From: an uncultured bacterium
GTDB taxonomy: Bacteria > Zhuqueibacterota > QNDG01 > CAYUAG01
Direction of reading: 5' to 3'
Assembly (NCBI GenBank): GCA_964554015.1
Contig: CAZKMO010000003.1
Location: 127 to 64,126 of the forward strand
Length of the DNA: 64,000 bases
Of this stretch, positions 48,631 through 62,975 are shown piece after piece (within the stretch, counting starts at the first letter, position 1; each line of letters starts with the position of its first letter). The translations under genes were made by a program, and so were the position numbers. The notes under the pieces were generated by a model. The model saw nothing but the letters and a program-made list of their open reading frames with translations. It was not told the DNA's origin and did no database searches.

Positions 48631-48655
48631 AGTATACTCCTCGATAAATATATAT

Positions 48656-49498
48656 CTAAATTATCACTTCTTTATGACGGGCAACATGGCACTGCATATT
48701 GACTGCGACCGGAAAACTGGCAATATGACAGGGATGCACTTCTATATGTACAGCCAGAGCAGTGGTGCTGCCTCCGAAACCCTGGGGTCCTATTCCCAAC
48801 TTATTAATCATTTCCAGGAGTTCATCCTCAAGATCAGCATACATTTTATCCGAATTTTTTGAACCCAGGGGTCTAAGCAGAGCTCGTTTAGCAATTTCTG
48901 CGCATTTATCAAATGTTCCGCCAATTCCAACGCCAACCACCACGGGTGGACAGGGATTGGCTCCTGATTTTCTCACTCTTTCCACTACAAATTCTTTAAT
49001 TCCTTCAATTCCAGCAGCCGGAGCCATCATCTTCACCTCACTCATGTTTTCACTACCTCCTCCTTTGGGCGCAAAGGTAATTTTGATTTTTTCTCCGGGT
49101 ACAATGTCAGTATGAATGACAGCCGGAGTATTATCACCAGTGTTATTTCTCTTCAGGGGATCGGCAACCACAGATTTACGAAGATATCCTTCTTGGTAAC
49201 CTTGTCTGACTCCTTCATTTATAGCTTCGATAAAATCTCCTCCGGTCAGGTGAACCTCCTGACCTAATTCAATAAAAAAAACTGCATATCCGGTATCCTG
49301 GCATAACGGTACCTTATCATTCTTGGCAATCTCAATATTTTCCAGTATTTTGCTTATTACTTCCCTGCCGGTGGGTGATTCTTCTTTTTTTTCTCTGTCT
49401 TGCAATGTTTTTATAACAACATCATCCAAATAATAGTTAGCGTCGATACAGAGTTTTTTAACTGCCTGGGTAATGACTGAAACATCAATTTCTCTCAT
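48656..49498 (-). CDS. Class I (Fe-S) fumarate/tartrate hydro-lyase, alpha subunit
   Basis: CQDTGYAVFF motif with cluster-ligating cysteines. Confidence 0.85.
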   Translation of the reverse strand: MREIDVSVITQAVKKLCIDANYYLDDVVIKTLQDREKKEESPTGREVISKILENIEIAKNDKVPLCQDTGYAVFFIELGQEVHLTGGDFIEAINEGVRQGYQEGYLRKSVVADPLKRNNTGDNTPAVIHTDIVPGEKIKITFAPKGGGSENMSEVKMMAPAAGIEGIKEFVVERVRKSGANPCPPVVVGVGIGGTFDKCAEIAKRALLRPLGSKNSDKMYADLEDELLEMINKLGIGPQGFGGSTTALAVHIEVHPCHIASFPVAVNMQCHVARHKEVII

Positions 49499-49690
49499 GT
49501 ATTACTCCTTTATATACTTGAAGGTACCTTAATTTTTCTTGTTTAGTCTATTATTGTTCCATCGGAATCGGGATCGATATCGCAATCGTTATTATGATTA
49601 ACTTAATGACTAGGAAATTTTTCTTATGCATGAAATATTTTTCCTTTTTTCAATGCCGATTCCGATACCGACTTTAAATTAAAAAATATT

Positions 49691-51379
49691 TCAAACCGCT
49701 TTATACGGAATATATTCCGGTTTATACATTTTGCTTTTCATAAACTCAAGAATATCTTTTGGTTCTTTCTCCCAGGCTAATCCCTGAGAATAGGCAACTT
49801 GGGCCACTGAAACCGCAATATGGGCCGATATTTCCCGAATATCATCTAAATCAGGATATACCTTTCCTTTTAGCAATGATTTTTTTTCTACCCTTCCTGC
49901 CAAGGTTTTGGCTGCCGCATAAAACATGGAATTGGTAATTCGAGTTGCTTCACATACTATTGCTCCTAAACCCAGTCCAGGAAAAATATACATGTTATTT
50001 CCTTGACCGGTTTCATAGGTCTTTCCCTTATATTTTAGGGGCGGAAAAGGACTCCCGCTGGCATAGATTACCTTCCCATTTGTCCATTTATAGGCTTGTT
50101 CCGGAGTGCATTCACTTTTCGAGGTCGGGTTTGATAAAGCAAAAATTATGGGCCGGTCCACATGCTTATTCATTTCACTTACTACTTCCTGATTGAATGC
50201 TCCTGTTTGGGTGCTAACTCCGATTAAAACCGTTGGCTTAACCGTCTTGACTACCTGTAACAGGTCCAGAGTGTCCAAATCATTTCTGGCATAAGGAATT
50301 TTATGTTCAGCCAGTGTTCCCTTTCGTTTCATACTGACCAATCCTTTGCTATCCAATAACCAGAATTGTTTGCGGGCATCTGCTCGGCATAATCCTTCTT
50401 CCACCATGCCGGCAACAATAAGATCTGCAATACCAATGGAAGCAGATCCAGCCCCATAGAAAACAATTCTTTGATCCTTAAGTTTCTGATCAGTAATCCG
50501 CATGGCCGCCAATAAACCAGCCAGGGCTACGCTACCGGTCCCCTGAATATCATCATTGAAGCAGAGAAGCTTATTCCGGTAACGATTGAGGAGTAAAAAA
50601 GCATTGTCATTGCTAAAATCTTCAAACTGAACCAGGGCTCGAGGCCATCTGTCATGTATGGTTGCCATACATTCATCCATAACTTCAAGAAAATCATTAC
50701 CGGTTAAGCGGAGATGCTTTTCACCCAGATATAAAGGATCATGAAGGAATTTCTCATTATTGGTACCGACATCCACCACAATGGGAAGTGTTTTGCAGGG
50801 ATATAATCCAGCACAGGCAACATAAAGAGCCAGCTTGCCAATGGGAATCCCTATTCCATTTACTCCCAGATCACCTAACCCTAATATCCGGCTTCCATCT
50901 GTTATGACAATTATATCAATTCTATCTTCTGGCCAATTATTTATTCTTTTTTTAATATCACCCTTGGCATTAGATGATATATACATTCCCCGGGGTCTTC
51001 TGTATATATGTCCGTATTCCTGACAAGCTTCACCTACAGTGGGTGTATAGATTATGGGAGTCATTTCTTCCAAATTCTCCAAAATCAACCGGTAATACAG
51101 AATCTCATTACGATCATGAAGTGCTTCTAAGAAGATATATTTTCCCAGATTAGTATCTTTACGGTTATAATTTTCCTTGGCTCGATTCAATTGTTGTTCT
51201 ATAGTGGACTGATGAGGAGGAATCAAACCAAACAAATTTAGTTCTTCCCGTTCGGAATTTGAAAAAGCAGTTCCTTTATTCAGCAGAGGATCTCTGATTA
51301 TATCCAATCCTCGTCTAGTAATAGGAAAGTACTTTAGCCTCTGTTCATCAACTTCAAATCTTTTTAATTCTTGGTTCAT
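49691..51379 (-). CDS. NAD(P)-dependent malic enzyme
   Basis: IYTPTVGEACQEYG, FNDDIQGTGSVALAGLL. Confidence 0.9.
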   Translation of the reverse strand: MNQELKRFEVDEQRLKYFPITRRGLDIIRDPLLNKGTAFSNSEREELNLFGLIPPHQSTIEQQLNRAKENYNRKDTNLGKYIFLEALHDRNEILYYRLILENLEEMTPIIYTPTVGEACQEYGHIYRRPRGMYISSNAKGDIKKRINNWPEDRIDIIVITDGSRILGLGDLGVNGIGIPIGKLALYVACAGLYPCKTLPIVVDVGTNNEKFLHDPLYLGEKHLRLTGNDFLEVMDECMATIHDRWPRALVQFEDFSNDNAFLLLNRYRNKLLCFNDDIQGTGSVALAGLLAAMRITDQKLKDQRIVFYGAGSASIGIADLIVAGMVEEGLCRADARKQFWLLDSKGLVSMKRKGTLAEHKIPYARNDLDTLDLLQVVKTVKPTVLIGVSTQTGAFNQEVVSEMNKHVDRPIIFALSNPTSKSECTPEQAYKWTNGKVIYASGSPFPPLKYKGKTYETGQGNNMYIFPGLGLGAIVCEATRITNSMFYAAAKTLAGRVEKKSLLKGKVYPDLDDIREISAHIAVSVAQVAYSQGLAWEKEPKDILEFMKSKMYKPEYIPYKAV

Positions 51380-51532
51380 GTAACTCCTTTAAAATAGAGT
51401 GAAAAATTATTTATTATGCCACGGTTTGATACAGATAAAATTCAGAAATAATATTAAAGAATAAATAATTACAGAATAAATCCCTGTACATCTGTGGCAA
51501 ATTCACAAAAATTATATATAGAGCGAACATTT

Positions 51533-52195
51533 TTACAACCATTCCACCACTTTTTTTACTAATTTCTCAATTCCTGGGGCAATATCAGCTATTCCGGGAC
51601 CAAGCATATAGGCAGGTGTGGATACAATTCTGTGGTTTTCATCAACAGCTATCTCATCAACTTTACATGGTTTATGTTTTGCCCGAAAAAACTCTATATC
51701 TGAAGCTGTTTTACTGTCATTACCAATAGTAAGTAGAGGATGAATATCAGTATCTTTTAAGGCAACTGCTACTAAAATGGGAGCGATACACATTACTCCC
51801 AGAGGTTTTCTTGCTAGCACGGTATTATGAATGATATTTTTAACATCAGGATCAATAATACAATTGCGTCCTTTCACATCATAATCACTTAAATTTGTAG
51901 CTGCTCCTGCTCCACCGGGCAGAATTAAACCATCGAAATCATTAACGGATACTGAAGTTAAATTCCGTACCTCACCCCTGGCTATTCTGGCTGATTCTAT
52001 CAGTGTATTTCGCTTTTCCGACATTTCATTTTTGGAATTATGATTAATTACCTGGAATTGATTTTTATCTGGTGCAACGGGAATAACATCAACAATTTTT
52101 TTATTCAAAAAATATAAAGTCAGGGTTGCTTCCTGAATTTCTGATCCATCAAAAACTCCACAACCACTTAATAAAACACCAACTTTTTTATTCAT
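51533..52195 (-). CDS. DJ-1/PfpI superfamily protein, ElbB-like
   Basis: VGVLLSGCGVFDGSEIQEA N-terminus typical of ElbB. Confidence 0.7.
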   Translation of the reverse strand: MNKKVGVLLSGCGVFDGSEIQEATLTLYFLNKKIVDVIPVAPDKNQFQVINHNSKNEMSEKRNTLIESARIARGEVRNLTSVSVNDFDGLILPGGAGAATNLSDYDVKGRNCIIDPDVKNIIHNTVLARKPLGVMCIAPILVAVALKDTDIHPLLTIGNDSKTASDIEFFRAKHKPCKVDEIAVDENHRIVSTPAYMLGPGIADIAPGIEKLVKKVVEWL

Positions 52196-52235
52196 AACCT
52201 TTATCTCTATTAAAAAAATTGTTTTCTAAATATAT

Positions 52236-52265
52236 AAAGCCTAATATTCCAAACTATTAGGCTTT
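52236..52265 (-). terminator. Terminator hairpin closing the Hdr-like operon
   Basis: Perfect 11-bp inverted repeat AAAGCCTAATA / TATTAGGCTTT with an 8-nt loop, followed by a T-rich tract; 29 nt downstream of the last MvhD stop. Confidence 0.5.
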
Positions 52266-52293
52266 ATTTATGCTTATCCCTTTTTCGCTTATT

Positions 52294-52719
52294 TTAAATA
52301 AAAATTTTTCTTTTTGCCGGATTTTCACCCATATTTTTTATTTTTTGGGTAAATTCGGTAGTAACTTTGACAAATCGAGCCCCTTCTGCAGCAGAAATCC
52401 AGGCTAATTTCAGTCGTTCAGATTCCAATCCCAGGCACTCAAAAATTTTAGATAAAATAATAAATCTCCGTCGTGTATGGTAATTCCCGGATTGATAATG
52501 ACAATCTCCCGGGTGACATCCTCCGATTAATACCCCATCTGCTCCATGAAAAAACGATTTCACCAGAAAGACCGGATTCACTCTGCTGGAACACATAACC
52601 CGGATTGGTAAAATGGAAGGAGGGTATTTCATACGACTGGTTCCGGCCAGATCGGCTCCAGAATATGTACACCACTTACATAGAAAACTTACTATTTTTG
52701 GCGTAAAATCTGATGTCAT
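52294..52719 (-). CDS. MvhD-like (methyl-viologen-reducing hydrogenase delta subunit / FlxD-type) [2Fe-2S] protein
   Basis: FLCKWCTYSGADLAG...IRVMCSSRVNP...GADGVLIGGCHPGDCHY. Confidence 0.8.
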   Translation of the reverse strand: MTSDFTPKIVSFLCKWCTYSGADLAGTSRMKYPPSILPIRVMCSSRVNPVFLVKSFFHGADGVLIGGCHPGDCHYQSGNYHTRRRFIILSKIFECLGLESERLKLAWISAAEGARFVKVTTEFTQKIKNMGENPAKRKIFI

Positions 52720-52763
52720 TATTATTTATCTCCTCTAAATACGTTAGTTAATAAAATTTATTC

Positions 52764-53891
52764 TTATTCTTCTCCGATTTCTTCAAATTCCTCTTCTTTG
52801 AATATAGTTACCGGCACCTGTTCATTTACATCTCTTCCCGGTATATATTCAAATATTTCCGCTACTTTTTCACCACATTTTCTAAAAATTACTGAAACTG
52901 GTATATCAGACGGGCATACTTCCGTACATTGACCACAGCCAATACAAGAAAAACTCATATGGCTTAATCTTCCTATTTGATACAATATGGTATCCGAGGG
53001 AAGCCGCAGTCCTCCCTTGCGGGATAATTCCTGTTCCATTATAGTATTGTCATAGTCATAGGTAGAGGACTCAAAATCGCAGAGTACACAATAGCATATG
53101 GGACAGACCCGGCTGCAGGCATGACATCCAATACATCTGCCAAATACATCTATCATACCGTCTAACCCGGTATCTTGTATTTTAATCTGTTTAAAAAGCT
53201 CCTCTTTATATTTTTTTCTTCTTTCCCTAATCTGATCATAACCAGTTCTATCAAATTCATCCTCTGTTTTTTCTACTTCAAATCCCTGAAGTATTTCTTT
53301 GGCCTTATCCGAATGTAAAAATATCTTGCAGGTACTATCAGCACCTGTTTCTCCTAGCAGGGAAACCGTTGCATCAGCATTAAAGGGAACAAAATATTCA
53401 CACGCTTTGCATATTTCTCTGATATGCTCAAACTCATTACCGGCGGCAACCGTTTTCCCATAATCAGGGAGCATGGTATCGACTTTATTTTCAACCGTTG
53501 CGGTTAAGGGTAAAGCTCCTCCGCAGGTATAAGAAATTAAGAGAAAATTTTCTAATTTTCCCTGGGAGCGCTTCACTAGTTCAATAAAAGAACGCAGTTC
53601 ACAGGGTTTTATCACTGCTGCTACCGGCATTTCCATTTTAATCATATTGGAAAGCATTTTACCAGCATTAACCGGCATCAAAGGATGTAAAGGTACTACA
53701 TCATGCAATAATTCCGGATCTGTTATCAGGGCATAATCAAATTTGCCCTGTTTTTTTGTTTTACGCAAACTACACACGCCACTCACTTTCTTATTTTTCA
53801 GCAGGTAGGTTAATAAATCAATTAATCCCGCTTCCGTACTCTTTTTTATGGTTAACACCTGATCCATACCTAATCTCCTATGCTTCTGCAT
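52764..53891 (-). CDS. FrhB/FdhB-like flavo-iron-sulfur subunit with a C-terminal 2x[4Fe-4S] ferredoxin (paralog 2)
   Basis: Paralog of the next gene; CKACEYF block comparable to FrhB CKICKDY; CIGCHACSRVCPICYC and CIGCGQCTEVCP. Confidence 0.55.
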   Translation of the reverse strand: MQKHRRLGMDQVLTIKKSTEAGLIDLLTYLLKNKKVSGVCSLRKTKKQGKFDYALITDPELLHDVVPLHPLMPVNAGKMLSNMIKMEMPVAAVIKPCELRSFIELVKRSQGKLENFLLISYTCGGALPLTATVENKVDTMLPDYGKTVAAGNEFEHIREICKACEYFVPFNADATVSLLGETGADSTCKIFLHSDKAKEILQGFEVEKTEDEFDRTGYDQIRERRKKYKEELFKQIKIQDTGLDGMIDVFGRCIGCHACSRVCPICYCVLCDFESSTYDYDNTIMEQELSRKGGLRLPSDTILYQIGRLSHMSFSCIGCGQCTEVCPSDIPVSVIFRKCGEKVAEIFEYIPGRDVNEQVPVTIFKEEEFEEIGEE

Positions 53892-55026
53892 CCTCTACCA
53901 GCTCTTGAATTCCTTTAACTTCCTCCAGTTTAAACGTTTTGAGAGGAATAGGTTCACCCTTATTTTCCCCGCTGGAATAACTGAATTGCTTCTGGGTATT
54001 ATGAGCTACATAACTGAAAATTTCTGCAACCGGAATTGATACTGGACAGGCATCTGTGCATAAACCGCAGGAAACACAGGAAAGACTCATATGCGACATT
54101 CGTCCCACCTGAAACATTATTCTGTTTTGCGGTAAAGAGATACTCCCTCTTTTTTTTGCCTTTAACATCGTTAAGTCGGTTCCAGAAGTTACCGATTCTG
54201 AATCAAAATAACACTGACGGCAGTAACAAATCGGACAGGCACTTTGGCAATTATGACATCCTATACAATCAGAAAAAGTGGCAAGCAAACTGTTGAATCC
54301 TTCCACCATCTTTTTTATTTGGGTAAACCTTCCTTTTTTCTGAGCTGCACGTTTATCTTTTATTTCTTGGATACCGTTAGCCCATGCTGATACAGTGTGG
54401 GAAGCTTCCATACCAATTTCTTTTAATACCAGATTACCTCTATTACTATTGGCTATTAAAAACATAGTATTATTTTGATCATGAAATAAGGTAAAATGCA
54501 GATCACTGACCGGCAGTAGAGAAAATTGATCGCATATCTTACATACTGGTTTTATGGATTTATTCTGAAAATCCAATTTTTTTAAAATATCGTTAAATTT
54601 TTTCTCCCCCTTTTCCGGATCATTCAGATAATCTTCCATGGGTAAAGCACCCGGACAATCATAACTAATGAGAGTAACATTTTCCAAATTAACCTGATTC
54701 AATTTTGAAAGTTCGATAGTTGCCCTGATTTCACACGGCCTCATTAAGGCAGCAATTTTAAGCATAGATTGTCCTTTACGGGAAAAGCTGCTCAAGGCCC
54801 TGGCTCCCTGTATAGGCATTATGGGCGCTGCTGGATCAGCTTCAGTCAGTAATTTTTCATCTTTTACCAGAATCCAGGCATAGGAATCCTTAGCCGGTAC
54901 TCTCATAGGAACCAGTACGGCATCAACAGATTTACTCTGTAGCATCTTTTTTAAAATATCCACTATGGAATCTCTATAATCCTTATTTGAAGAAATTTTC
55001 ACTCCCTTAGTTTGGATTTTCTTCAT
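53878..55026 (-). CDS. FrhB/FdhB-like flavo-iron-sulfur subunit with a C-terminal 2x[4Fe-4S] ferredoxin (paralog 1)
   Basis: N-terminal SIVDILKKMLQSKSVDAVLV resembles FrhB GGIVTGLL...GAVV; CKICDQF as in FrhB; CIGCHNCQSACPICYC and CVSCGLCTDACP. Confidence 0.55.
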   Translation of the reverse strand: MKKIQTKGVKISSNKDYRDSIVDILKKMLQSKSVDAVLVPMRVPAKDSYAWILVKDEKLLTEADPAAPIMPIQGARALSSFSRKGQSMLKIAALMRPCEIRATIELSKLNQVNLENVTLISYDCPGALPMEDYLNDPEKGEKKFNDILKKLDFQNKSIKPVCKICDQFSLLPVSDLHFTLFHDQNNTMFLIANSNRGNLVLKEIGMEASHTVSAWANGIQEIKDKRAAQKKGRFTQIKKMVEGFNSLLATFSDCIGCHNCQSACPICYCRQCYFDSESVTSGTDLTMLKAKKRGSISLPQNRIMFQVGRMSHMSLSCVSCGLCTDACPVSIPVAEIFSYVAHNTQKQFSYSSGENKGEPIPLKTFKLEEVKGIQELVEDAEA

Positions 55027-55037
55027 CGAGTGCTCCT

Positions 55038-56726
55038 TTAACTGATGGCTTCTTTCATTTCTTGGTGTATCTGAATAGTAGTAAAATGTTTAGCACGAAT
55101 AGCACCGGAGGGACAACTCCCCACACAATTACCACATCCCCGACAAATTGCCTCATTAACAACACATATTCCCCGCTCAGGATCAAAAGTAATGGCTCCG
55201 TAACAACATACCTCCCTACAGGTCTGGCATCCCATACAGAAATCTGGGATAATTTCAGAAACCTTTACTTCAGGAATTATCTTCTCACCCGGTATCAATT
55301 GAGTCACTATCTTTCCCTGTACTGCTTTGGCCTGCAATACTGACTCTGATATGCCCTGGGGTCCATGACATCCTCCGGCTATATAAATTCCTTCTAAGGA
55401 AGTTCCTATCGGATTAAGCTGAGAATGCGCTTCCTGAAAAAATTTTGTTGGATGTAAAGGTACATTCAAAAGTTCGGCTAATTCTTCTGTGCCTTCTGCA
55501 GGTACCATGGCAGGGGCAAGAATAATCATATCCAGATCCGCTTCTTTTTTACTCCCATTGACTTCTGTATAGGTGATGTGGGTTTTTTTAGTTGTTATAT
55601 CACTGATGCGTATAAAATCCACCTTCTTTTTTGCCATAGTATCAAAATATTCCTGATCGTATTTATGGGGAAGACATAGATCCTTATAAAAATCTTTGAT
55701 TAAAATAGTATCAGACTGATCTTTTAAATAGGATATAATTTTTAACATATAATTACAGCAAATCCGAGAGCAATACCCTCTATCCTCTCTTCCCACACAA
55801 TGTATCAATCCCACGGATTTGGGCTCTTTTCCTGATTTAAGCACAATTTTACCCTTTGCTTTCATCATTTGTTCAATTTCCAGGGCAGTATAGACATTAT
55901 CATCTTTACCATAAGCATGCTTTTTCAATTTTTCTGTTGGCATTAAGGCAAAACCAGTAGCAAGCACAATAGCACCGACTACAAATTCATTTGCGGTTTG
56001 ATCCTTTTTTGTACTTTTTACTGTTACTTCGAAATTACCAAAAAAACCTACGGCATTTTCTAATTTTGAGTCAGTAAAAACTTCTATATTTTCATTTTCC
56101 TGTATGGCAGTAATTTTCTTTGCCACCAAATCAGTATTATTCTCCTGACGGGGCAATAAATTTTTAAATGACTGGGCATTACCCCCTAAAATAGAATTTT
56201 TCTCAACCAGATACACTCTTCTTTGTTTACTGGCCAGAGAAAGTGCTGTTTCCATTCCCGTTATTCCACCTCCGATAACCAGAACATTGGGATTACTGTC
56301 CAGTTGTTTCTCTATAAGGACAGATTGATGTAAAACCCGGTTTATGGCAGCTTTAATGTAACTAATTGCTTTCTCAGTAGCTTTCTTTTTATCAGGTATC
56401 ATCCAGGCGCATTGTTCCCGGATATTAACCATTTTATACAAATAAGGATTTAACTTGGTTTTTTTGCAGATATTAATAAAGGTAATCTCATGATCCCGGG
56501 GAGAACAGGCGGCAATAACCAGGTGAGTTAATTCATTATCTTTTATCTCCTTTTCTAGATACTCCTTGCCTTCATTAGAACAAAGCAGTTTATAGGGTTT
56601 GATAATTAATTGTTTATTTTTATAATCTTCCGATGATGATATTCTTTCTATAACTTCATCTATATTAATATTATCTGCGATATTGGGACCGCATTCACAT
56701 ATATAAATACCGATTTTCGTACTCAT
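55038..56726 (-). CDS. HdrA-like FAD flavoprotein, long form (N-terminal Cys domain, thioredoxin-reductase-like FAD domain, CSRICC motif, two C-terminal 4Fe-4S motifs)
   Basis: IGIYICECGPNI N-terminus; VLVIGGGITGMETALSLA; GYCSRICCNYM; CMGCQTCREVC and CRGCGNCVGSCP. Confidence 0.8.
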   Translation of the reverse strand: MSTKIGIYICECGPNIADNINIDEVIERISSSEDYKNKQLIIKPYKLLCSNEGKEYLEKEIKDNELTHLVIAACSPRDHEITFINICKKTKLNPYLYKMVNIREQCAWMIPDKKKATEKAISYIKAAINRVLHQSVLIEKQLDSNPNVLVIGGGITGMETALSLASKQRRVYLVEKNSILGGNAQSFKNLLPRQENNTDLVAKKITAIQENENIEVFTDSKLENAVGFFGNFEVTVKSTKKDQTANEFVVGAIVLATGFALMPTEKLKKHAYGKDDNVYTALEIEQMMKAKGKIVLKSGKEPKSVGLIHCVGREDRGYCSRICCNYMLKIISYLKDQSDTILIKDFYKDLCLPHKYDQEYFDTMAKKKVDFIRISDITTKKTHITYTEVNGSKKEADLDMIILAPAMVPAEGTEELAELLNVPLHPTKFFQEAHSQLNPIGTSLEGIYIAGGCHGPQGISESVLQAKAVQGKIVTQLIPGEKIIPEVKVSEIIPDFCMGCQTCREVCCYGAITFDPERGICVVNEAICRGCGNCVGSCPSGAIRAKHFTTIQIHQEMKEAIS

Positions 56727-56743
56727 ATTGTTTACCTCTCCCT

Positions 56744-58030
56744 TTATCCTAATAATGAAAATACTTCTCCGACTGCAGATTCTGCCTGAATAACAGAATC
56801 CTCAATATCTTTGGGCCCTTCTGCGCAGCCAACAGTGAAAATTCCATCCACAGAGGTTTGAACCGTACCGATATACCCTTTCCGGGTTTGAAAAAATCCC
56901 TTGCGGTCACGTTCAATGCCTAAGATATCGGCAAGCTCTTTTGATGTTTTTGCCGGAACCAGAGCACAGGAAAGAATTACCATATCTACGTTCAGGGAAT
57001 TCTTAGAACCTTTGCCAGCAGTTAATTTAACCTGTAATTTTCCGTTATTCCCGGCTATTTGTACAATATCCGGGGCAGACTGAAAAATAAAAGTACTATT
57101 GGAATCTTTTATTTTATTATAAAAGCTCTGATAGCTTTTATTAGGAACACATATATCAGAATAAATATTATATACCGTTGCCTCCGGCAATTTATCTTTT
57201 ATAAAATGGGCATATTTAAAGGAATACATACAACAGACCCCGGAACAATACCCCAGCTCTTTTCTGCCTATACAATGGACTATTGCTACTGAATCAGGTA
57301 ATTTTTTCCCTTTCCGGAGTAACAGTTCACCTGAAGTGGGGCCATTAGAAGCATAGAGTCTCTCGAATTCCATGGAGGTGTAAACATTAGGTAATGTACC
57401 ATATCCAAAAGCAGAAAGTAGCTTACCTCCATATAAATCAAATCCGGTGGCGATTATAATTGCCCCAACCTCGATTTTTACCTGTTCATCCTTATCAGAA
57501 AAATTAATAGCCCCAAACATACAAGCTTCCGCACAGGCATTACAGCTTTTTTTTCCGGATAATCGTAAACAATGCCCGGAATTAATAGCAGGGACATTAG
57601 GAAGGGAACCGTCACAGGGTACATAAATAGCCTTCTTTTTGCCCAGATTTTCTTCCCATTCATTCTGTAAACTAACCGGACAGGGTTCATAGCAGGCTCC
57701 GCATCCAATGCATTCTGTCAAACTTACATATCTAGCTTTTTTATTGATGGTGACAGTAAAATTGCCAACTTGACCGTTAACAGCCTTAACTTCACTTAAA
57801 GTCATAACTTCAATATTATCATTTTGCAGTACATCCTGCTGTACAGGGGCTACCATACAGGTTGAACATTCTAAATTGGGAAAGCTTTCCTCGTTTTTTA
57901 TGGTATTTCCTCCAATGATGGGAAGTTTTTCAACCAGGACAACTTTCTTGCCGGCCTTGGCAAGCATAAGACTTGCCTGCATACCGGCTATTCCTGCTCC
58001 AATTATAAGAACATTATTTGAGTTACTCAT
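56744..58030 (-). CDS. HdrA-like FAD flavoprotein, short form (QmoA-like, inserted ferredoxin only)
   Basis: VLIIGAGIAGMQASLMLA; CIGCGACYEPCP; GYCSGVCCMYS. Confidence 0.75.
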   Translation of the reverse strand: MSNSNNVLIIGAGIAGMQASLMLAKAGKKVVLVEKLPIIGGNTIKNEESFPNLECSTCMVAPVQQDVLQNDNIEVMTLSEVKAVNGQVGNFTVTINKKARYVSLTECIGCGACYEPCPVSLQNEWEENLGKKKAIYVPCDGSLPNVPAINSGHCLRLSGKKSCNACAEACMFGAINFSDKDEQVKIEVGAIIIATGFDLYGGKLLSAFGYGTLPNVYTSMEFERLYASNGPTSGELLLRKGKKLPDSVAIVHCIGRKELGYCSGVCCMYSFKYAHFIKDKLPEATVYNIYSDICVPNKSYQSFYNKIKDSNSTFIFQSAPDIVQIAGNNGKLQVKLTAGKGSKNSLNVDMVILSCALVPAKTSKELADILGIERDRKGFFQTRKGYIGTVQTSVDGIFTVGCAEGPKDIEDSVIQAESAVGEVFSLLG

Positions 58031-58047
58031 TTTAAAATCTCCCTTTT

Positions 58048-58497
58048 TTAATAATAGGGATTTTCATTCAAAGGATTGGGACCTAACTTTTTAATTTTTT
58101 CCGTAAAACTGTTAACTACATCAGCATATCTATTACCTTCTGAGGCTGATATCCAGGCTAATTGAAGCCGCTCCGGATCAATTTTAAGTGTTTTAAACAC
58201 ACTCTTCAACATTGCATATCTGCGGCGGGTATAATAATTCCCCTTATCATAATGACAGTCACCTGGATGACATCCACCAATTAATATACCATCCGCTCCA
58301 TTGAAAAAAGTGGTTAATACCAAATTAAAATCAATCCGACTGGAACACATTACCCGAATAACAGTTAAATTAGGAGCAATCTCCAATTTGGAAGAGCCTG
58401 CTAAGTCCGCGGCTGCATAAGTACACCAATTACATAGGTACCCTACTATTTTGGGAGTAAATTTTTCTTTTCCATTAGATTCCATTTTAAATCCCAT
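58048..58497 (-). CDS. MvhD-like [2Fe-2S] protein
   Basis: YLCNWCTYAAADLAG...IRVMCSSRID...GGCHPGDCHY. Confidence 0.8.
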   Translation of the reverse strand: MGFKMESNGKEKFTPKIVGYLCNWCTYAAADLAGSSKLEIAPNLTVIRVMCSSRIDFNLVLTTFFNGADGILIGGCHPGDCHYDKGNYYTRRRYAMLKSVFKTLKIDPERLQLAWISASEGNRYADVVNSFTEKIKKLGPNPLNENPYY

Positions 58498-58597
58498 TTA
58501 AAAATAAATTAAAATTATATTTCAAACTATTATTTAGTTACAAGAAAGAATCCTTCTTTTATGAAATATATAATATACAGGGTTAATTTATCGTATA

Positions 58598-58822
58598 TTA
58601 AATTTGTATTTGTGCTTTATGTTTTCCCTCGGCATCAGTGGTGCACATCAGTAATGTTTTTCCTGTCTTTTGACACCAGGCTTTAATATCATTGGGAAAG
58701 GATTCACAATCTGCTTGAACTTCCAGAGTATCACCCGGATTTAACTGAGGGAGCATGGCTGCCACTTTTAAAATTGGTTGGGGACATTTTAATCCTAAAG
58801 TATCAAGTGTCTTTACTGCCAT
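58598..58822 (-). CDS. tusA: TusA-like sulfur carrier
   Basis: LDTLGLKCPQPILK carries the canonical CPxP motif; 74 aa. Confidence 0.8.
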   Translation of the reverse strand: MAVKTLDTLGLKCPQPILKVAAMLPQLNPGDTLEVQADCESFPNDIKAWCQKTGKTLLMCTTDAEGKHKAQIQI

Positions 58823-58993
58823 TTTGCCTATCTCCTTTTTTAAAAATTAATTTCATACATGACTGTGAAGGTTATAGGTTCAGGGTTCCCGGTTAATGTT
58901 CGAAATTCTTGATTTAATATAATAACATTTTTTAATCATTATTACAAACTTTTAAGCTGGAAACTTTTAAACCTTAACCCTTAATATATCTGT

Positions 58994-59386
58994 TTAAAAC
59001 GAAAAAGTCAAAGTTGCATCTTTGGCTTCATTGATAAAGGTGGTCGCACCGACTACTTCAATCCCGTCATTTAAATCCTCCCGGGTAAAATCATGCACAT
59101 CAAAGGCTAATTCACACACCAGTAACCTTCCTCCTAAGTTGAGAAAACCTTTGTATAATTCTTCCAGATCCGGAAGTGATGGTGCAGCTTGGTTTAATTC
59201 TTGAAGTTTTCCTTTTTTCATAGCTGGTGCTCCCCCCGGACAAAAGAAAATAATAACGTCATCCCCGCTGGCAACAGCTGATGACCCCAATATAAAAGGG
59301 GGATACACATTTTTGGTTTCTGAACCATTTACGGTAATTGCCATTTTTGCCATCTTTTTACCTCCACTGTTTTTCAGCAGATACAT
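58994..59386 (-). CDS. DsrE/DsrF-like (COG2210-type) sulfur-relay protein
   Basis: KMAITVNGSE...VYPPFILGSSAVASGDDVIIFFCPGGAPAMKKG matches the COG2210 pattern (AII.SSG...A...A.A...G..V..FFTFWG); candidate active Cys in FFCPGG. Confidence 0.55.
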   Translation of the reverse strand: MYLLKNSGGKKMAKMAITVNGSETKNVYPPFILGSSAVASGDDVIIFFCPGGAPAMKKGKLQELNQAAPSLPDLEELYKGFLNLGGRLLVCELAFDVHDFTREDLNDGIEVVGATTFINEAKDATLTFSF

Positions 59387-59459
59387 TGAATATACACATA
59401 ATACAATATTTTCTCAAAAAAAATTCATTCCTTTTCTTACCATTTCTGATTAATTATGA

Positions 59460-59852
59460 TCAATACACTATTGGTCCCAGATTATTTATATCATCAACAA
59501 AATTATTTACAATCTGCTGCAATTTTGCTGATTCCCCTTTATCAACCCATTCCAGTCTCAATCTGTCCGGATTAATACCGATTTGGTAAAGCATCATTTT
59601 TAATAAGGTAATTCTCCCCACAGTTTTATAATTTCCATCATGCTCACATTTTTCCTCAGGACAGGCGGTTATTAACACACCACTCACACCTTTCTGAAAG
59701 GTTTGTAAAATTAATTCCGGTGAAATACGACCGGAACACATGCTTACCAGAAATTTATGCTGATTATCAGTTTGCTGGGATAAGGTTCGGGAAAATTGCA
59801 ATCCCGGATAAGTAGACCAGTTACAATAAAACACAACAGTCTTTGTTTTCAT
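59460..59852 (-). CDS. Divergent MvhD-like protein (first motif CNWS instead of CNWC)
   Basis: VVFYCNWSTYPG...SMCSGRISPE...ITACPEEKCEHDGNY; start overlaps the upstream stop (ATGA). Confidence 0.6.
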   Translation of the reverse strand: MKTKTVVFYCNWSTYPGLQFSRTLSQQTDNQHKFLVSMCSGRISPELILQTFQKGVSGVLITACPEEKCEHDGNYKTVGRITLLKMMLYQIGINPDRLRLEWVDKGESAKLQQIVNNFVDDINNLGPIVY

Positions 59853-60412
59853 TCATTAACTCCTTCCAGAAATTCTTCTACCTGTTCATATAATTCTTTC
59901 TGACTTAAGCCAAATCCTTCCCGGCTGTAGGCTGCACCAGAGGGGCAGGCTGCCACACAGCAACCACAACTCTGGCATTTAACTCTGTCCACTACGATTT
60001 TATCGTTTTTTTCATCATAGGATCTGGCTTCATGTTTACAGACTGAGATACAAATCCGGCAACGACTGCACAGATCATCATTGGTTCGGGAGGTAGTTCC
60101 CAAAGCTTCAAATCCTGCCTCTACAAAATCAGCTTTGGCATCATTTAAAATATCGGTAATATCAACTTTAGCTGAACAGGCAGCATCACAGCGTTTGCAC
60201 ATATAACATTCAAATATTCTTTCAACTATTTCTTCATCCGGTTTGATATTACCCTGAAGCATACCATACAGCATGATTAATTTCCCCCTGGGAGTATCTG
60301 ATTCCCATCCGGTTATTTTAAAAATATGACAGTTTTCAAAACAATAGCCACAGCGTATACATACATGTAATTTATCCTGCCATTTTTTCAAACTTTCAAA
60401 TTTCATTTTCAT
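59849..60412 (-). CDS. HdrC-like polyferredoxin with four CxxCxxCxxxC motifs
   Basis: CIRCGYCFENC, CYMCKRCDAAC, CSRCRICISVC, CQSCGCCVAAC; TGA stop. Confidence 0.7.
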   Translation of the reverse strand: MKMKFESLKKWQDKLHVCIRCGYCFENCHIFKITGWESDTPRGKLIMLYGMLQGNIKPDEEIVERIFECYMCKRCDAACSAKVDITDILNDAKADFVEAGFEALGTTSRTNDDLCSRCRICISVCKHEARSYDEKNDKIVVDRVKCQSCGCCVAACPSGAAYSREGFGLSQKELYEQVEEFLEGVNE

Positions 60413-60430
60413 TCCTCAGTTTTGAATAAA

Positions 60431-61498
60431 TCAATTTAATGCTTCCGCCACTAAATCAAGTACATTTAATACCTTTATTTTTCCATTGTATTCAGCAGCC
60501 ATATTCTTAAGATTTAATTCACAAGTAGGGCATAAGGTTACTAAATAATCTGCCTTGGTCTCCACTGCTTGTTTAACCCGATTGAAAGCTAACTGTTGAG
60601 ATAATTTTTTATCCGTAACCAGTAATCCCCCTCCTCCTCCACAGCAGGTTGCTTCCTTACCAAAGGTAGACATTTCAATAACTTCAGCACCTATTTCATT
60701 CAACAACCATCGTGGTTCGTCAACCATATCCAAACCTCTGGCCACATTACAGGGATCATGATAGGTTACTTTCAGGTTAAGTTTTTTAATCTTATTTTTA
60801 TAATTCGGAAGCAGTTTCACAATTTCATTTATAATATATTTTGCCTTCAAATCAGGATATTTCTTCTTAATGAAAAATACACAGGTAGTACAGGCGCATA
60901 TAATTTCATCATTGGTATCAGGAATAGACTCTCTGAATGTATTTTGCTGTTCAGAAAAACCTTTTTTATTTCCTAAAACCGCAAAGGGCATACCACAGCA
61001 GGTTTCTTCAAAAGTTTTTGGTTTAACTCCTAATTTCTCCAAAATATGAAGATATTTTTCCGAATCCTGTTTTCTCTCCAATAATCTGCACCCTAATAAA
61101 ACAGTTTTTTCCCCTTTAAATTCAGGAGCAGTTAAGTTTTGATTAAAAATATTACCACTCTGTTGAATTTTATCTAAAAGGAGATCGTGTGCTTCATAAT
61201 GATAACCAGCCTCATACAAATCAGCCCGCACGGCCGATATGATATCCGGTATGGAAACATTGGCAGAACATCTTTCTACACAATCCTTACAAAACGTGCA
61301 TTCATATAATTTCTGGGCAATAAAATCGGAAGGTTCTAATTCATCATATAATAAACCATAACTAAGCACAATCTTGCCCCGAGCTCCATCGACTTCCCAC
61401 CCTTGTTCCTGAAATACCGGACATCCTTCAAAACAGTAACCACAGCGTATGCAGCGATTGAGATCATCAACCCAATTTTTTAGATTTTTTGTTTCCAT
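60431..61498 (-). CDS. HdrD/GlcF-type iron-sulfur subunit: 2x[4Fe-4S] ferredoxin plus two CCG domains
   Basis: CIRCGYCFEGCPV, CTFCKDCVERC; CCG domains ...CCGMPF...CTTC... and ...CCGGGGG...CPTCE. Confidence 0.8.
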   Translation of the reverse strand: METKNLKNWVDDLNRCIRCGYCFEGCPVFQEQGWEVDGARGKIVLSYGLLYDELEPSDFIAQKLYECTFCKDCVERCSANVSIPDIISAVRADLYEAGYHYEAHDLLLDKIQQSGNIFNQNLTAPEFKGEKTVLLGCRLLERKQDSEKYLHILEKLGVKPKTFEETCCGMPFAVLGNKKGFSEQQNTFRESIPDTNDEIICACTTCVFFIKKKYPDLKAKYIINEIVKLLPNYKNKIKKLNLKVTYHDPCNVARGLDMVDEPRWLLNEIGAEVIEMSTFGKEATCCGGGGGLLVTDKKLSQQLAFNRVKQAVETKADYLVTLCPTCELNLKNMAAEYNGKIKVLNVLDLVAEALN

Positions 61499-61532
61499 TC
61501 CACCTTTCCCAAAATAGTATTAAGGTAAAAGA

Positions 61533-62975
61533 TTAATTAACGTTATACCGTAATTTAGTAGCAGTAACCCAATCATCAGGAGCATCCATCATCTTCCCTG
61601 GATTTAAAATATTATTAGGATCAAGTGCATTTTTGATGGCTTTCATATAAGGAAGTGAATCCTTTTTTTCCCGTTTAAAGGCAGGGGCTTTAGATAATCC
61701 GATTCCGTGTTCAGCTGAAGTAGTCCCACCCATTTCCATTACATAGTCATAAATTTCCTGCACCGCTTTTTTGGCATTATACCACTGTTTTCCTTTGGTT
61801 GCATCCATAAGAATTTTTGTATGCATACAACCGGAACCGCAATGGCCATAAGCAGTCATTATAACATTATTCTTTTTGGCAATCTCATGAATCCTGCGGG
61901 CCATTTTAGCCATTTTGGAATAAGGTACTGCCATATCATCAGCAAGAGAGGTGCAGGAATACAGATCCTTATACTTTGACAAGGCTGGAAACAGTTTTTT
62001 TCTTCCGGCAAAAAGTTTGGTTCGCGTTTCTGTATCATAGCTGTACTGTATCCCGCTTCCCTTATGTTCTTGACAAATCTTTTTCATTTTTTCAATCTCG
62101 AAATCTACTGCCTCTTTTACCATCCCATCAGCTTCAAACATTAAAATTGCTTCCACATCCGGTAATCCCATATCCATGGCTTTATTCACTGCAGTAATAG
62201 CAACATTATCCATCAGTTCCAGCAGGGAAGGCTGACACCCCCCGGCCATAATGGCAGCTATGGTATCGCCGGCATCTTCTAAGGTATTAAAATTTGCTAC
62301 TCCCAGACAGCGGAATTTGGGAAGGGGAACAAATTTCAACATTGCCTCTACAATGACTCCCAGGGTACCTTCTGAGCCTACTATTAATCTGTCCAATTGA
62401 TATCCAGCTGCTTCCACTCTGGTCCGGGAGCCCAGGTGTACTAAACTTCCGTCAGCCATTACCACTTCCATTCCCAGCAGGGAATCTCTAACAGCACCAT
62501 ACTTCACTGATCGTACTCCGCTGGCATTATTGGCAATTTCACCACCAATGGTCGCCACTCGGCTGGAAGCAGGGGCCACCGGATAAAAAACACCATAGGG
62601 TTTCAAAGCCCTGTTCAAGTCATCATCAATCACTCCCGCTTCTACTCGGCAATATCCATCCTGGAGATTTATTTCCAGAATTTTATTCATCTTTTTTAAA
62701 TCCAGGACAATACCCCCTTTAATAGGTACTGCCTGTCCTGACATTCCTGAACCCGATCCTCGAGGGGTAACAGGAATTTTCTCTGAGTTGGCATAACGGA
62801 CAATCTTCTGTACCTGTTCTTTTGTTTCCGGACGAATCACTACCCAGGCAAATGCCTCATGCACAGATGAATCTGAGCCATACACATATCTGGTTGCCGG
62901 ATCATCCCTGATATTATCTTTTCCTACAATTTTGCTTAATTTGTTAATATCTACTTTTGCCATAATTTTCCTCAA
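61533..62975 (-). CDS. FAD-linked oxidase of the GlcD / D-lactate dehydrogenase family
   Basis: PVTPRGSGSGMSGQAVP...GGIVLDLKKMNKI FAD-binding PCMH domain; C-terminal AEHGIGLSKAP...LDPNNILNPGKM. Confidence 0.85.
   Translation of the reverse strand: MRKIMAKVDINKLSKIVGKDNIRDDPATRYVYGSDSSVHEAFAWVVIRPETKEQVQKIVRYANSEKIPVTPRGSGSGMSGQAVPIKGGIVLDLKKMNKILEINLQDGYCRVEAGVIDDDLNRALKPYGVFYPVAPASSRVATIGGEIANNASGVRSVKYGAVRDSLLGMEVVMADGSLVHLGSRTRVEAAGYQLDRLIVGSEGTLGVIVEAMLKFVPLPKFRCLGVANFNTLEDAGDTIAAIMAGGCQPSLLELMDNVAITAVNKAMDMGLPDVEAILMFEADGMVKEAVDFEIEKMKKICQEHKGSGIQYSYDTETRTKLFAGRKKLFPALSKYKDLYSCTSLADDMAVPYSKMAKMARRIHEIAKKNNVIMTAYGHCGSGCMHTKILMDATKGKQWYNAKKAVQEIYDYVMEMGGTTSAEHGIGLSKAPAFKREKKDSLPYMKAIKNALDPNNILNPGKMMDAPDDWVTATKLRYNVN

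Follow-up and report, generated by a model that had tools for sequence, protein, structure and literature searches.

Two recurrent redox modules, a split-HdrA core with TusA and DsrE and a lactate-type dehydrogenase, in one gene string of an uncultured bacterium

Introduction

On which substrate do heterodisulfide reductase (Hdr)-like complexes act in bacteria that make neither coenzyme M (CoM) nor coenzyme B (CoB)? HdrA-based flavin electron bifurcation is central to the energetics of methanogens, and genes for HdrA, MvhD and HdrD-like proteins are abundant in non-methanogenic bacteria devoid of both coenzymes; what the bacterial complexes reduce or oxidize is an old open question. It is raised by a 64,000-nucleotide stretch of DNA, hereafter the window, from an uncultured bacterium of the lineage Zhuqueibacterota; QNDG01; CAYUAG01 (assembly GCA_964554015.1, contig CAZKMO010000003.1, positions 127 to 64,126), in which a minus-strand string of twelve genes joins HdrA, MvhD and FrhB/FdhB-like proteins to the sulfur carriers TusA and DsrE and to a GlcD-type dehydrogenase. 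An earlier note, made from the DNA letters, read these genes as a single operon for a new bifurcating or confurcating complex.

Here, we describe the twelve genes as two modules, each of which recurs in other genomes. Taken together, the two modules may constitute a soluble, ferredoxin-coupled, bifurcating or confurcating HdrA-type hub that connects the lactate/pyruvate couple to TusA/DsrE-borne sulfane sulfur or disulfide; this is the reading that we tentatively favor, holding it slightly short of probable. The conserved attachment of TusA and DsrE to a core of split HdrA, FdhB-like proteins and MvhD provides a concrete candidate substrate for bacterial Hdr-like enzymes.

Results and discussion

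Two redox modules in one gene string

Twelve minus-strand open reading frames (ORFs), taken from the ORF list and its translations, run from 62975 to 52294 where the earlier note had placed them (Table 1), and searches with Pfam, NCBIfam and family profiles against the Protein Data Bank (PDB) bear out the families it had named. In this G+C-poor DNA (~36–40% across the twelve genes), the region resolves into two recurrent redox modules within a longer co-directional gene string. Module A (59460–62975) comprises GlcD, an HdrD-like subunit with two complete CCG motifs, a polyferredoxin and MvhD; module B (52294–59386) comprises DsrE, TusA, MvhD, a short HdrA, a long HdrA, two FdhB/ElpB-like proteins and a further MvhD.

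The proposal of a single twelve-gene operon with overlaps or small gaps holds in part. The genes share one strand and are for the most part tightly spaced, with overlaps of at most 44 bp; however, larger gaps separate MvhD1 from DsrE (73 bp), DsrE from TusA (171 bp) and TusA from MvhD2 (100 bp), the two modules recur independently, and the string starts upstream of 62975, where a thioesterase gene lies 21 bp away and the succinyl-CoA synthetase alpha gene another 17 bp on, both on the same strand. In a one-genome-per-species collection, 183 stretches encode an FdhB-like relative; locus counts given below refer to the best 80 of these 183, and individual loci are numbered with the prefix L. The complete twelve-gene order of the window is found also in L010 and L090, both of which share the thioesterase/succinyl-CoA synthetase order upstream of GlcD; in L090, the same strand runs on through succinyl-CoA synthetase beta, two 2-oxoacid:ferredoxin oxidoreductases and an FrdA-like flavoprotein. 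At the other end of the string, what had been called a clean terminator (52236–52265) is a real hairpin, with a predicted folding energy of -16 kcal/mol (z = -4.13; none of 200 shuffled sequences was as stable), but it is AT-rich, with G-C pairs at three of 13 positions, and the coding-strand T-run is imperfect.

Table 1. Features of the window discussed in the text, all coordinates being those of the window.
Feature	Coordinates	Strand	Length	Basis and remarks
GlcD-like FAD-dependent D-2-hydroxyacid (probably D-lactate) dehydrogenase	61533–62975	-	480 aa	Pfam and PDB matches
HdrD/GlcF-like iron-sulfur subunit	60431–61498	-	355 aa	Pfam and PDB matches, motif reading
Four-cluster polyferredoxin	59849–60412	-	187 aa	One HdrC-type and one classical dicluster domain; 4-bp overlap with next gene
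MvhD1, divergent MvhD/FlpD [2Fe-2S] connector of the GlcD module	59460–59852	-	130 aa	Pfam FlpD 8.7e-34
DsrE-family sulfur carrier	58994–59386	-	130 aa as listed	Pfam, NCBIfam and PDB matches
TusA sulfur carrier	58598–58822	-	74 aa	Pfam TusA 1.8e-18 (66.6 bits, cut-off 28.6)
MvhD2, MvhD/ElpC-type [2Fe-2S] connector	58048–58497	-	149 aa	Pfam FlpD 4.6e-50; five invariant Cys
Short HdrA	56744–58030	-	428 aa	Aligned to solved HdrA
Long HdrA	55038–56726	-	562 aa	Aligned to solved HdrA
FdhB/ElpB-like iron-sulfur protein 1	53878–55026	-	382 aa	Family profile against PDB; AlphaFold2 model and Foldseek
FdhB/ElpB-like iron-sulfur protein 2	52764–53891	-	375 aa	Paralogue of protein 1, 14-bp overlap with it
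MvhD3, MvhD/ElpC-type [2Fe-2S] connector	52294–52719	-	141 aa	Pfam FlpD 6.5e-51; five conserved Cys
Hairpin after MvhD3, probable and possibly bidirectional terminator	52234–52267	-	13-bp stem	Pattern scan and fold
HycI-like endopeptidase gene	47564–48076	-		Assigned solely through clustering with annotated relatives
NuoE-like gene	47084–47539	-		Reading of translation
NuoF-like gene	45277–47091	-		Reading of translation
NuoG-type 2Fe-2S/4Fe-4S protein fused to a molybdopterin (formate-dehydrogenase-like) domain	42732–45266	-	844 aa	Pfam-scanned stretch
NfnA-like gene	41930–42748	-		Pfam-scanned stretch
NfnB-like gene	40504–41907	-		Pfam-scanned stretch

The short and long HdrA are complementary

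The two different HdrA forms that had been noticed are indeed present and, beyond that, are complementary halves of one HdrA architecture. The short HdrA covers residues 141–555 of solved HdrA (8rvv_A, E = 1.5e-92; 5odc_A, E = 2.2e-87); it possesses a thioredoxin-reductase-like FAD domain, an inserted 2x[4Fe-4S] ferredoxin domain and a Cys55/Cys58 pair, and has neither the N-terminal domain nor the ferredoxin domain at the C-terminus. The long HdrA covers residues 12–244 and 325–653 (8rvu_a, E = 2.4e-97); besides an FAD domain, it possesses the N-terminal cluster domain and, at the C-terminus, a 2x[4Fe-4S] ferredoxin domain; the inserted ferredoxin domain and the Cys197-type cysteine are missing. 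NCBIfam HdrA2 models match both forms (5e-118 and 6e-125), and the [4Fe-4S] cysteine motif (C..C..CC) by the FAD domain is invariant in each (Cys253/262/266/267 in the short form, Cys310/319/323/324 in the long form). A search for the exact sequence of the long HdrA returned no record.

In methanogen HdrA, the N-terminal cluster of each protomer receives a ligand, Cys197, from its partner. At this position, the ‘LECSTC’ of the short HdrA aligns to ‘QENNTD’ of the long HdrA; the Cys pair is 98% conserved among short forms, and no selenocysteine was found there (101 Cys codons, 0 TGA). The same division has been described for tandem and fused HdrA of anaerobic methanotrophic (ANME) archaea, in which the copy with the N-terminal domain has lost Cys197 and the other copy keeps it (Chadwick et al., PMC9012536), a rule from which heterodimers were proposed for these genes (PMC9012536). 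The four HdrA domains never occur in one polypeptide of the window; the complete set is provided by the short and long pair, or by a natural fusion in L089, where a 974-aa protein (10896–13820) joins a short-type HdrA (residues 6–406) to a long-type HdrA (residues 426–964) in the order of the window and is followed by MvhD and both FdhB-like genes. Together, the complementary domain losses, the Cys197 pattern and the L089 fusion make an obligate heterodimer of the short and long HdrA a well-supported prediction.

An FdhB/ElpB-like pair without the GG[AV]VT motif

The two FdhB-like proteins are 31% identical (3e-67), and each carries a C-terminal dicluster domain. Pfam and NCBIfam alone were indecisive about their family: the 375-aa protein is borderline for FrhB_FdhB_C (6.7e-5, 23.2 bits against a cut-off of 23.3) and falls short for FrhB_FdhB_N (4.4e-3, 17.6 bits against 22), and neither FrhB_FdhB domain was matched in the 382-aa protein. 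The family was settled by searching a profile built from 32 members against solved structures and by a fold search. Full-length profile matches were obtained to solved FdhB/ElpB (9t1s_M, 3.3e-41; 8rvu_E, 7.9e-34; 7bkb_E, 2.2e-29), and an AlphaFold2 model of protein 1 (pLDDT 76.9, pTM 0.80) retrieved ElpB (8rvu_E, TM score 0.69) and FdhB (7bkb_E, TM score 0.70) in Foldseek, followed by FrhB, Fsr and HCAR. The claim of FrhB/FdhB-like subunits in a bacterium thus stands in spite of the weak Pfam scores. In a large protein collection, 841 relatives were found at E <= 1e-5, under generic source labels such as “4Fe-4S binding protein” or “formate dehydrogenase subunit beta”.

Each of the two proteins has 15 invariant Cys (across 81 sequences in the case of protein 1), including a CPxCxCRxC motif shared with FdhB, where 16 would be expected for four [4Fe-4S] clusters. 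Both are without the GG[AV]VT motif found near the N-terminus of FdhB and ElpB, which we take to be part of the flavin site; the ‘GECGGAVTA’ of FdhB/ElpB aligns to a non-conserved, charged stretch that reads ‘KDYRDSIVD’ in the window. A literature search on residues of the FrhB FAD site had no result. ElpB itself holds FAD and four [4Fe-4S] clusters (PMC12350162).

These observations bear on the view that all twelve products form one complex, in which the FrhB-like subunits would provide the site for the nucleotide, and the oxidation of lactate or glycolate would be coupled to both NAD(P)H and ferredoxin. That the genes share a strand, lie mostly close together and end in a hairpin would suit such a complex, as would the identical gene order of L010 and L090, the presence of LctD of the confurcating Ldh-Etf among the best solved GlcD relatives, and the flavin hydride-transfer site that the FrhB family normally carries (PMC12350162). 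Yet Pfam and NCBIfam detect an NAD(P)-binding domain in none of the twelve proteins, and the GG[AV]VT motif is missing, leaving the NAD(P)H coupling of the earlier note without sequence support. Moreover, the modules are separate in most genomes, the gene string continues past 62975, and TusA and DsrE would be left without a role. We regard the one-complex view as improbable.

TusA and DsrE accompany a widespread core

Mapping the twelve proteins onto the related loci reveals a conserved core in the order MvhD, short HdrA, long HdrA, FdhB-like 1, FdhB-like 2, MvhD. All 80 loci are labeled bacterial; they lie in metagenome-assembled genomes (MAGs) labeled Cloacimonadota, Neomarinimicrobiota, Krumholzibacteriota, Eisenbacteria, Fermentibacteria/Aegiribacteria and Delongbacteria, and also WOR-3, Dehalococcoidales, Verrucomicrobiota, Acidobacteriota, Armatimonadota and unclassified bacteria. 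The order of module B is thereby kept in more than ten labeled phylum-level groups, far beyond chance. Of the 80 loci, 74 have the two FdhB-like genes side by side, and an MvhD copy ends the core downstream in most loci that reach far enough, copies with an in-frame TGA being counted. In the window, the two MvhD of the core score 169.2 (MvhD2) and 171.9 bits (MvhD3) on Pfam FlpD against a cut-off of 22.3.

It is this HdrA/FdhB module, and not the GlcD/GlcF module, to which TusA and DsrE belong. TusA lies just upstream of the core in 25 of the 35 loci with enough upstream sequence, and DsrE lies beside TusA in 18 of 23. The synteny of hdrA, mvhD, tusA, dsrE and glcD/glcF that the earlier note had suggested looking for is accordingly found in part: module B recurs widely, but GlcD is within 10 kb of the core in just six of the 80 loci.

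The window TusA has the active site Cys13-Pro-x-Pro (‘LKCPQP’), with Cys13 present in all of 43 core-adjacent orthologues (100%). Three further cysteines are conserved in the same set: Cys39 (93%), Cys50 (91%) and Cys60 (86%). To our knowledge, well-studied TusA proteins conserve just the active-site Cys, sometimes with one more; the extra cysteines hint that the chemistry involves a disulfide or trisulfide and is not just the carriage of a persulfide. Across phyla, core-adjacent TusA is 60–91% identical to that of the window and more conserved than HdrA or the FdhB-like proteins.

DsrE is a stand-alone member of its family, no DsrF or DsrH partner being present. It matches Pfam DrsE_2 (1.8e-15) and DsrE (3.3e-6), NCBIfam DsrE2 at 5.3e-14 (52.7 bits against a cut-off of 210), and the PDB entries 2qs7 (3e-5) and 3mc3 (1.7e-3). 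All of 30 orthologues share its Cys91, which corresponds in alignments to the conserved Cys of two solved DsrE-like proteins. The sequences are conserved from about residue 12 onward, and translation probably starts at Met12 or Met15 (59353 or 59344). Between MvhD1 and DsrE, L010 (5430–5690) and L090 (12051–12332) encode an ArsR-family regulator of 86–93 aa, for which the window, with a gap of just 73 bp at this place, has no gene; another ArsR-family regulator lies upstream of the HdrD-like gene in L013 (4259–4534).

Upstream of the core, a YedE-type transporter, up to three rhodaneses and a porin are found in L004 and L015, with such clusters in 10–12 loci. By tblastn, YedE, rhodanese, porin, HdrB, FrdA, LarA and MvhA/G queries had no match in the window, so sulfur-import and hydrogenase contexts cannot be claimed for this genome from the window. 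The HdrB query came from a related locus, and its result, together with the absence of HdrC, agrees with the claim that the window has no HdrB besides the GlcF-like subunit.

TusA and DsrE could instead be accessory suppliers of sulfur or selenium that help to assemble the cofactors or clusters of these iron-sulfur-rich and sometimes selenocysteine-containing proteins. The window TusA does score on YedF selenium-metabolism models (5.8e-8, 2.4e-5), and the YedE-type transporters upstream of ~12 loci occur in lineages with putative selenocysteine MvhD (see below). However, TusA and DsrE are kept where all MvhD use Cys and no YedE is nearby, the window included, and the rhodaneses and porin point to bulk sulfur traffic. 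With TusA among the most conserved proteins of the cluster and bearing three extra conserved Cys, a stoichiometric redox partner fits better than an assembly factor; we hold the accessory role to be very improbable.

The lactate-type module

GlcD matches Pfam FAD_binding_4 (6.6e-46) and FAD-oxidase_C (6.1e-59). Its score on the NCBIfam model TIGR00387 glcD (8.8e-121, 403.6 bits) lies under the cut-off of 567.9, and the 355-aa subunit likewise scores 74.1 against 333 bits on the GlcF equivalog; with neither equivalog reached, homology assigns no substrate. Nor can the closest solved relatives alone discriminate it, these being a glycolate oxidase (9qgz, 4.7e-74), LctD (7qh2_C, 6e-70) and a D-lactate dehydrogenase (8jdc, 1.6e-65). 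The gene neighborhoods are more telling: the lactate racemase LarA lies near or adjoins the GlcD/HdrD-like pair in four other loci, L086–L089, which makes lactate the likeliest GlcD substrate; the earlier note had suggested a lactate/glycolate type of oxidation. Translation of GlcD probably starts at the ATG at 62963 and not at the TTG at 62975, orthologues being 476 aa long.

The 355-aa subunit consists of an HdrC-like 2x[4Fe-4S] N-terminal part and two complete CCG motifs, read from the translation as C136..CC167/168..C203xxC206 and C250..CC285/286..C323xxC326. Pfam matches are Fer4_8 (3.3e-12) and CCG (1.5e-26, in two stretches), and the top NCBIfam match is to residues 129–487 of TfrB (4.6e-47, under the cut-off). 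Among solved structures, HdrB (3.5e-8) and HdrC (3.3e-7) are matched, such that the protein resembles HdrC fused to HdrB and is HdrD-like; its family is very conserved, the best 120 of 2390 relatives (E <= 1e-10) showing 56–81% identity. The polyferredoxin matches Fer4_8 (3.8e-16) and Fer4_7 (7.1e-14), each in two stretches, and MvhD1 scores 116.6 bits on FlpD, keeping four of the five Cys of MvhD2 and MvhD3 with CNWS replacing CNWC.

The genes for GlcD, the HdrD-like subunit, the polyferredoxin and MvhD recur together, also without module B; the polyferredoxin accompanies GlcD, GlcF and MvhD in L010, L013, L036, L044, L045, L086, L088 and L090. In L086 (Fermentibacteria MAG, GCA_014728175.1; 8563–15040), the order is GlcD, HdrD-like, polyferredoxin, MvhD, MvhG, MvhA, HycI; LarA and then three genes precede the module, and no HdrA was called within the 21-kb locus. 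L088 (8420–16425) reads GlcD, HdrD-like, MvhG, MvhA, GlcD, polyferredoxin, MvhD, LarA. Judged by its genes, the L086/L088 arrangement looks like an undescribed lactate dehydrogenase/[NiFe]-hydrogenase unit. L087 (Marinimicrobia) reads LarA, PEPCK, GlcD, HdrD-like, Ldh, Ldh, LarA and shares a 63.7-kb contig with a core locus, both within a few tens of kb.

Where GlcD/GlcF and the core do meet, they do so in four arrangements: that of the window, L010 and L090; that of L013, in which the HdrD-like gene alone lies directly upstream of DsrE-TusA and GlcD-polyferredoxin-MvhD lies 2.5 kb downstream of the core; that of the Cloacimonadota loci L032, L036, L044 and L045; and that of L089, which reads LarA, GlcD, HdrD-like, HdrC, HdrB, HdrA, fused HdrA, MvhD and the two FdhB-like genes. 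Four different orders suggest a functional link rather than an accidental adjacency.

Conversely, the two modules may be independent neighbors, module A being a self-contained lactate dehydrogenase that serves a different partner (for example, an Mvh [NiFe]-hydrogenase, or HdrA from another part of the genome) and sits beside module B in a central-metabolism redox gene island. The rarity of the adjacency (six of 80 loci) keeps this a serious rival. L086 places the module before MvhG-MvhA-HycI without HdrA, and L088 is similar; the string of the window also holds genes for succinyl-CoA synthetase, thioesterase, fumarate hydratase, malic enzyme and NfnAB-like and NuoEFG/Fdh-like proteins, to which relatives add 2-oxoacid:ferredoxin oxidoreductase genes, and its HycI-type protease gene suggests a hydrogenase elsewhere in the genome. 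Against independence stand the four gene orders, which occur in locus groups with widely diverged proteins, and the L013 HdrD-like gene directly upstream of DsrE-TusA. In addition, MvhD is known only as an HdrA adaptor (PMC12350162), and the only HdrA genes of the window are those of the core. On balance, we consider independence unlikely.

Comparison with known systems

The closest characterized relatives of the cluster are the methanogen Elp-Hdr and Fdh-Hdr complexes, and its HdrA organization matches the ANME tandem-HdrA pattern. Like ElpABC-HdrABC of Methanothermobacter marburgensis (8rvu/8rvv, PMC12350162), it combines an FdhB-like subunit without catalytic FdhA with an MvhD homologue and a methanogen-type HdrA; in Elp-Hdr, electrons pass from ElpB through ElpC, the MvhD homologue, to the HdrA flavin (PMC12350162). 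Unlike Elp-Hdr, it has two FdhB-like paralogues in place of one ElpB and an HdrA split into two complementary paralogues in place of a homodimer; its host is bacterial, TusA and DsrE are attached, and the missing GG[AV]VT motif renders F420/FAD chemistry doubtful. Membership in Elp-Hdr was rejected, ElpA, HdrB and HdrC being absent. No FdhA/ElpA-like gene lies in 52236–62975; the 844-aa molybdopterin protein (42732–45266) is of the NuoG-fusion type and stands beside NuoEF-like genes. FdhAB-MvhD-HdrABC(-Fmd) of Methanospirillum hungatei (7bkb) and the related 9t1s share with the cluster the FdhB-MvhD-HdrA path and the CPxCxCRxC motif, whereas the molybdopterin FdhA, HdrBC and Fmd have no counterpart in it. 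In ANME archaea, HdrA5/6, 12/13 and 3/4 are tandem or fused and occur with FrhB/FdhB and MvhD, and ANME-1 has FdhB-only clusters (PMC9012536). The window pair obeys the same N-terminal-domain/Cys197 complementarity rule, with fused versions in both; the ANME pairs, however, are archaeal and tied to CoM/CoB and F420, and no TusA/DsrE or GlcD association is reported for them there (PMC9012536).

Module A resembles archaeal HdrD/GlcD pairs in joining a GlcD flavoprotein to a subunit with 2x[4Fe-4S] and 2xCCG, to which the window adds the polyferredoxin, MvhD and the HdrA/TusA/DsrE neighbors. The Dld-II-type D-lactate dehydrogenase of sulfate reducers is comparable to this pairing. The archaeal pairs were proposed to couple lactate oxidation to heterodisulfide reduction, and might, according to the same authors, use heterodisulfides other than CoM-S-S-CoB (PMC10667645). 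Ldh-EtfAB (LctBCD) was rejected: an LctD-like GlcD is present, but neither EtfA nor EtfB is among the ORFs typed in the window.

With the bacterial complexes FlxABCD-HdrABC (Hdr-IFO) and QmoABC, the cluster has in common an HdrA/MvhD-containing electron-transfer system. Qmo, too, uses two different HdrA paralogues. The former was rejected because the cluster has no FlxA-type NAD(P)H subunit, an AsrB-like query matching nothing but the NfnA-like gene (42002–42676), and that weakly, and the latter because there is neither a membrane QmoC nor an MvhD domain fused as in QmoB in the cluster and aprAB is absent among the typed genes of 40–64 kb. On its gene content, this cluster, widespread in MAGs, is neither LldEFG nor any other of the named systems compared; that it is not canonical FlxABCD-HdrABC, Qmo, sHdr or LldEFG had been surmised before, and in each case defining subunits are missing.

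The sulfur-oxidizing sHdr system (HdrC1B1A-hyp-HdrC2B2 with LbpA and DsrE3/TusA) likewise couples Hdr-like genes to TusA, DsrE-family proteins and rhodaneses, which are reported always to accompany it (PMC11094781). An sHdr-like role would have the sulfane sulfur of TusA/DsrE oxidized to sulfite, delivering reductant for carbon fixation. Such a reading has been given for Hdr clusters of Ca. Stygibacter and Ca. Tenebribacter: Williams et al. (2021) found Cloacimonadota Hdr genes beside thiosulfate sulfurtransferase, TusA and a sulfur transporter and, by analogy with sHdr, took them for sulfur oxidation (PMC8542988). L033 is a Ca. Stygibacter contig with the core. The parts of the module do not fit this reading of the Cloacimonadota cluster: HdrB1/B2, HdrC1/C2 and LbpA are absent from the window and from the examined flanks, HdrA is of the methanogen type with extra iron-sulfur (ferredoxin) domains and not a 349-aa sHdrA (6tjr, just 3e-26), and MvhD and FdhB-like subunits are present. 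The hosts, moreover, look like strict anaerobic fermenters, with no electron acceptor evident. Sulfur oxidation is, in our estimation, quite improbable. Membership in sHdr was rejected, with no HdrB, HdrC or GcvH-like protein among the typed ORFs of the cluster. As to the novelty that the earlier note attributed to the arrangement, full-text literature searches found no description of a tusA-mvhD-hdrA-hdrA-fdhB-fdhB cluster, and the open-access papers naming both TusA and MvhD were unrelated; a part of it had, however, been noticed in the Cloacimonadota MAGs just mentioned, in the only publication found that touches on the bacterial cluster.

A model for the two modules

From gene content, domain complementarity, Cys ligands, homology and synteny we infer a heterodimer, docking partners, substrates and a flow of electrons, and a model for the system can be put forward. 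The HdrA heterodimer would be the bifurcating or confurcating center; a role of this kind, which the earlier note had suggested, is plausible. An FAD domain, the inserted dicluster domain that faces ferredoxin and the Cys pair at the position of Cys197 would come from the short HdrA; the long HdrA would add another FAD domain together with the N-terminal cluster domain and a dicluster domain at the C-terminus. Two MvhD [2Fe-2S] connectors may wire the heterodimer to the two ElpB/FdhB-like multi-cluster proteins, which would serve as iron-sulfur arms as in Elp-Hdr. DsrE and TusA may carry sulfur species, as a persulfide or as a Cys-S(n)-Cys bridge, and this sulfur would be the thiol/disulfide-type redox partner, taking the place that CoM-S-S-CoB has in methanogens. 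GlcD is predicted to oxidize D-lactate or a close 2-hydroxyacid and to pass the electrons to the HdrD-like subunit, the two CCG motifs of which would form the sole HdrB-type disulfide- or persulfide-reducing site of the locus; in this lineage, the polyferredoxin and MvhD1 may dock module A to HdrA. Electrons from lactate (about -190 mV) and from ferredoxin would be merged or split at the HdrA flavin, with the sulfur couple as third partner.

Several points weigh against this model. Without GG[AV]VT, a flavin or hydride site in the FdhB-like proteins is doubtful, and none of the twelve proteins points to a two-electron partner of mid potential, be it NAD(P)H, F420H2, H2 or formate. A CCG protein is missing within 10 kb of most core loci (HdrD-like GlcF in four of 80, HdrB in seven of 80), so that the core with TusA/DsrE must either do without an HdrB-type site close by or rely on one from another part of the genome. 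With a single N/C-terminal mobile arm for three MvhD, docking cannot simply copy that of Elp-Hdr. Module A, found without HdrA beside Mvh hydrogenase genes in L086, can work in other contexts, and internal promoters may lie within the three gaps of 73–171 bp, on which a promoter scan was uninformative, its 47 sites being not above chance (42.9 expected from shuffles).

A bolder version of the model makes TusA/DsrE the bacterial counterpart of CoM-S-S-CoB, as a redox couple of protein-bound disulfide, persulfide or trisulfide that is reduced at the HdrD-like CCG site by D-lactate and cycled by the asymmetric HdrA heterodimer/ElpB-like complex, which would bifurcate or confurcate with ferredoxin. 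We rate it as rather unlikely; if true, it would name the physiological substrate of bacterial Hdr-like complexes and would imply a widespread non-methanogenic “protein heterodisulfide” energy coupling in fermentative candidate phyla. Several locus groups have the core beside a lactate dehydrogenase that holds the sole CCG site. Complementary HdrA halves would also amount to a natural single-arm version of the symmetric methanogen enzyme, useful for studying the conformational gating of bifurcation. Its hosts (Cloacimonadota, Marinimicrobia, Fermentibacteria and others) are uncultured fermenters that abound in anoxic sediments, lakes and digesters, and the system may link their carbon fermentation to sulfur cycling.

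Gene surroundings and variants of the core

Downstream of the cluster, 48073–52195 holds genes for fumarate hydratase beta and alpha, malic enzyme and a DJ-1/PfpI-like protein; the fumarate hydratase and malic enzyme calls derive from the annotation of relatives, and the DJ-1 match is weak (E = 0.0039). L006, L007, L010 and L090 keep this order, and the cluster accordingly belongs to a C4-dicarboxylate/TCA-branch gene island. On the same strand, 40504–48076 contains more genes of the bifurcation type (Table 1); the Pfam scan covered 40504–45266. Neither a large nor a small hydrogenase subunit was found in the window.

The first Cys codon of the MvhD motif G-C-HPGDC is TGA in Cloacimonadota, Delongbacteria and two MAGs labeled Armatimonadota. 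Across loci, the position is occupied by 71 TGA and 93 Cys codons, the TGA sites including 6754, 12424 and 16279 in L004/L015, 3294 in L018, 6590 in L019, 686 in L065 and many more; the counterpart in the window is the Cys76 codon of MvhD2 (58270–58272). About 19 nt 3' of the TGA lies a conserved 7-bp hairpin, AUUACCA-GGU-UGGUAAU, which the Cys version of the window does not have. The TGA-containing MvhD are probable selenoproteins that gene callers split or truncate, as exemplified by the 65–66-aa FlpD fragments of L005, and the in-frame TGA explains why MvhD is seemingly missing from many Cloacimonadota loci.

A second conserved set, Flx-like in content and absent from the window, lies downstream of the core in 22–29 loci of many phyla (for example, L004 12662–19831). 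It encodes a ~1000-aa HdrA-like protein with an NfnB-like part, another DsrE, MvhD, a distant FdhB-like protein (321 aa), an AsrA-like protein (Fer4_22), an AsrB-like protein (FAD/NAD/2Fe-2S) and an HdrC-like protein. In L085 (Dehalococcoidales), the core is flanked by an MvhG-MvhA hydrogenase and an FdhA-like gene. L045 (Cloacimonadota) contains a TusA-less paralogous copy of the core, with HdrC-HdrB-HdrA-MvhD upstream and FrdB-FrdA-GlcD-polyferredoxin-MvhD-HdrD-like-HdrA-MvhD downstream of it.

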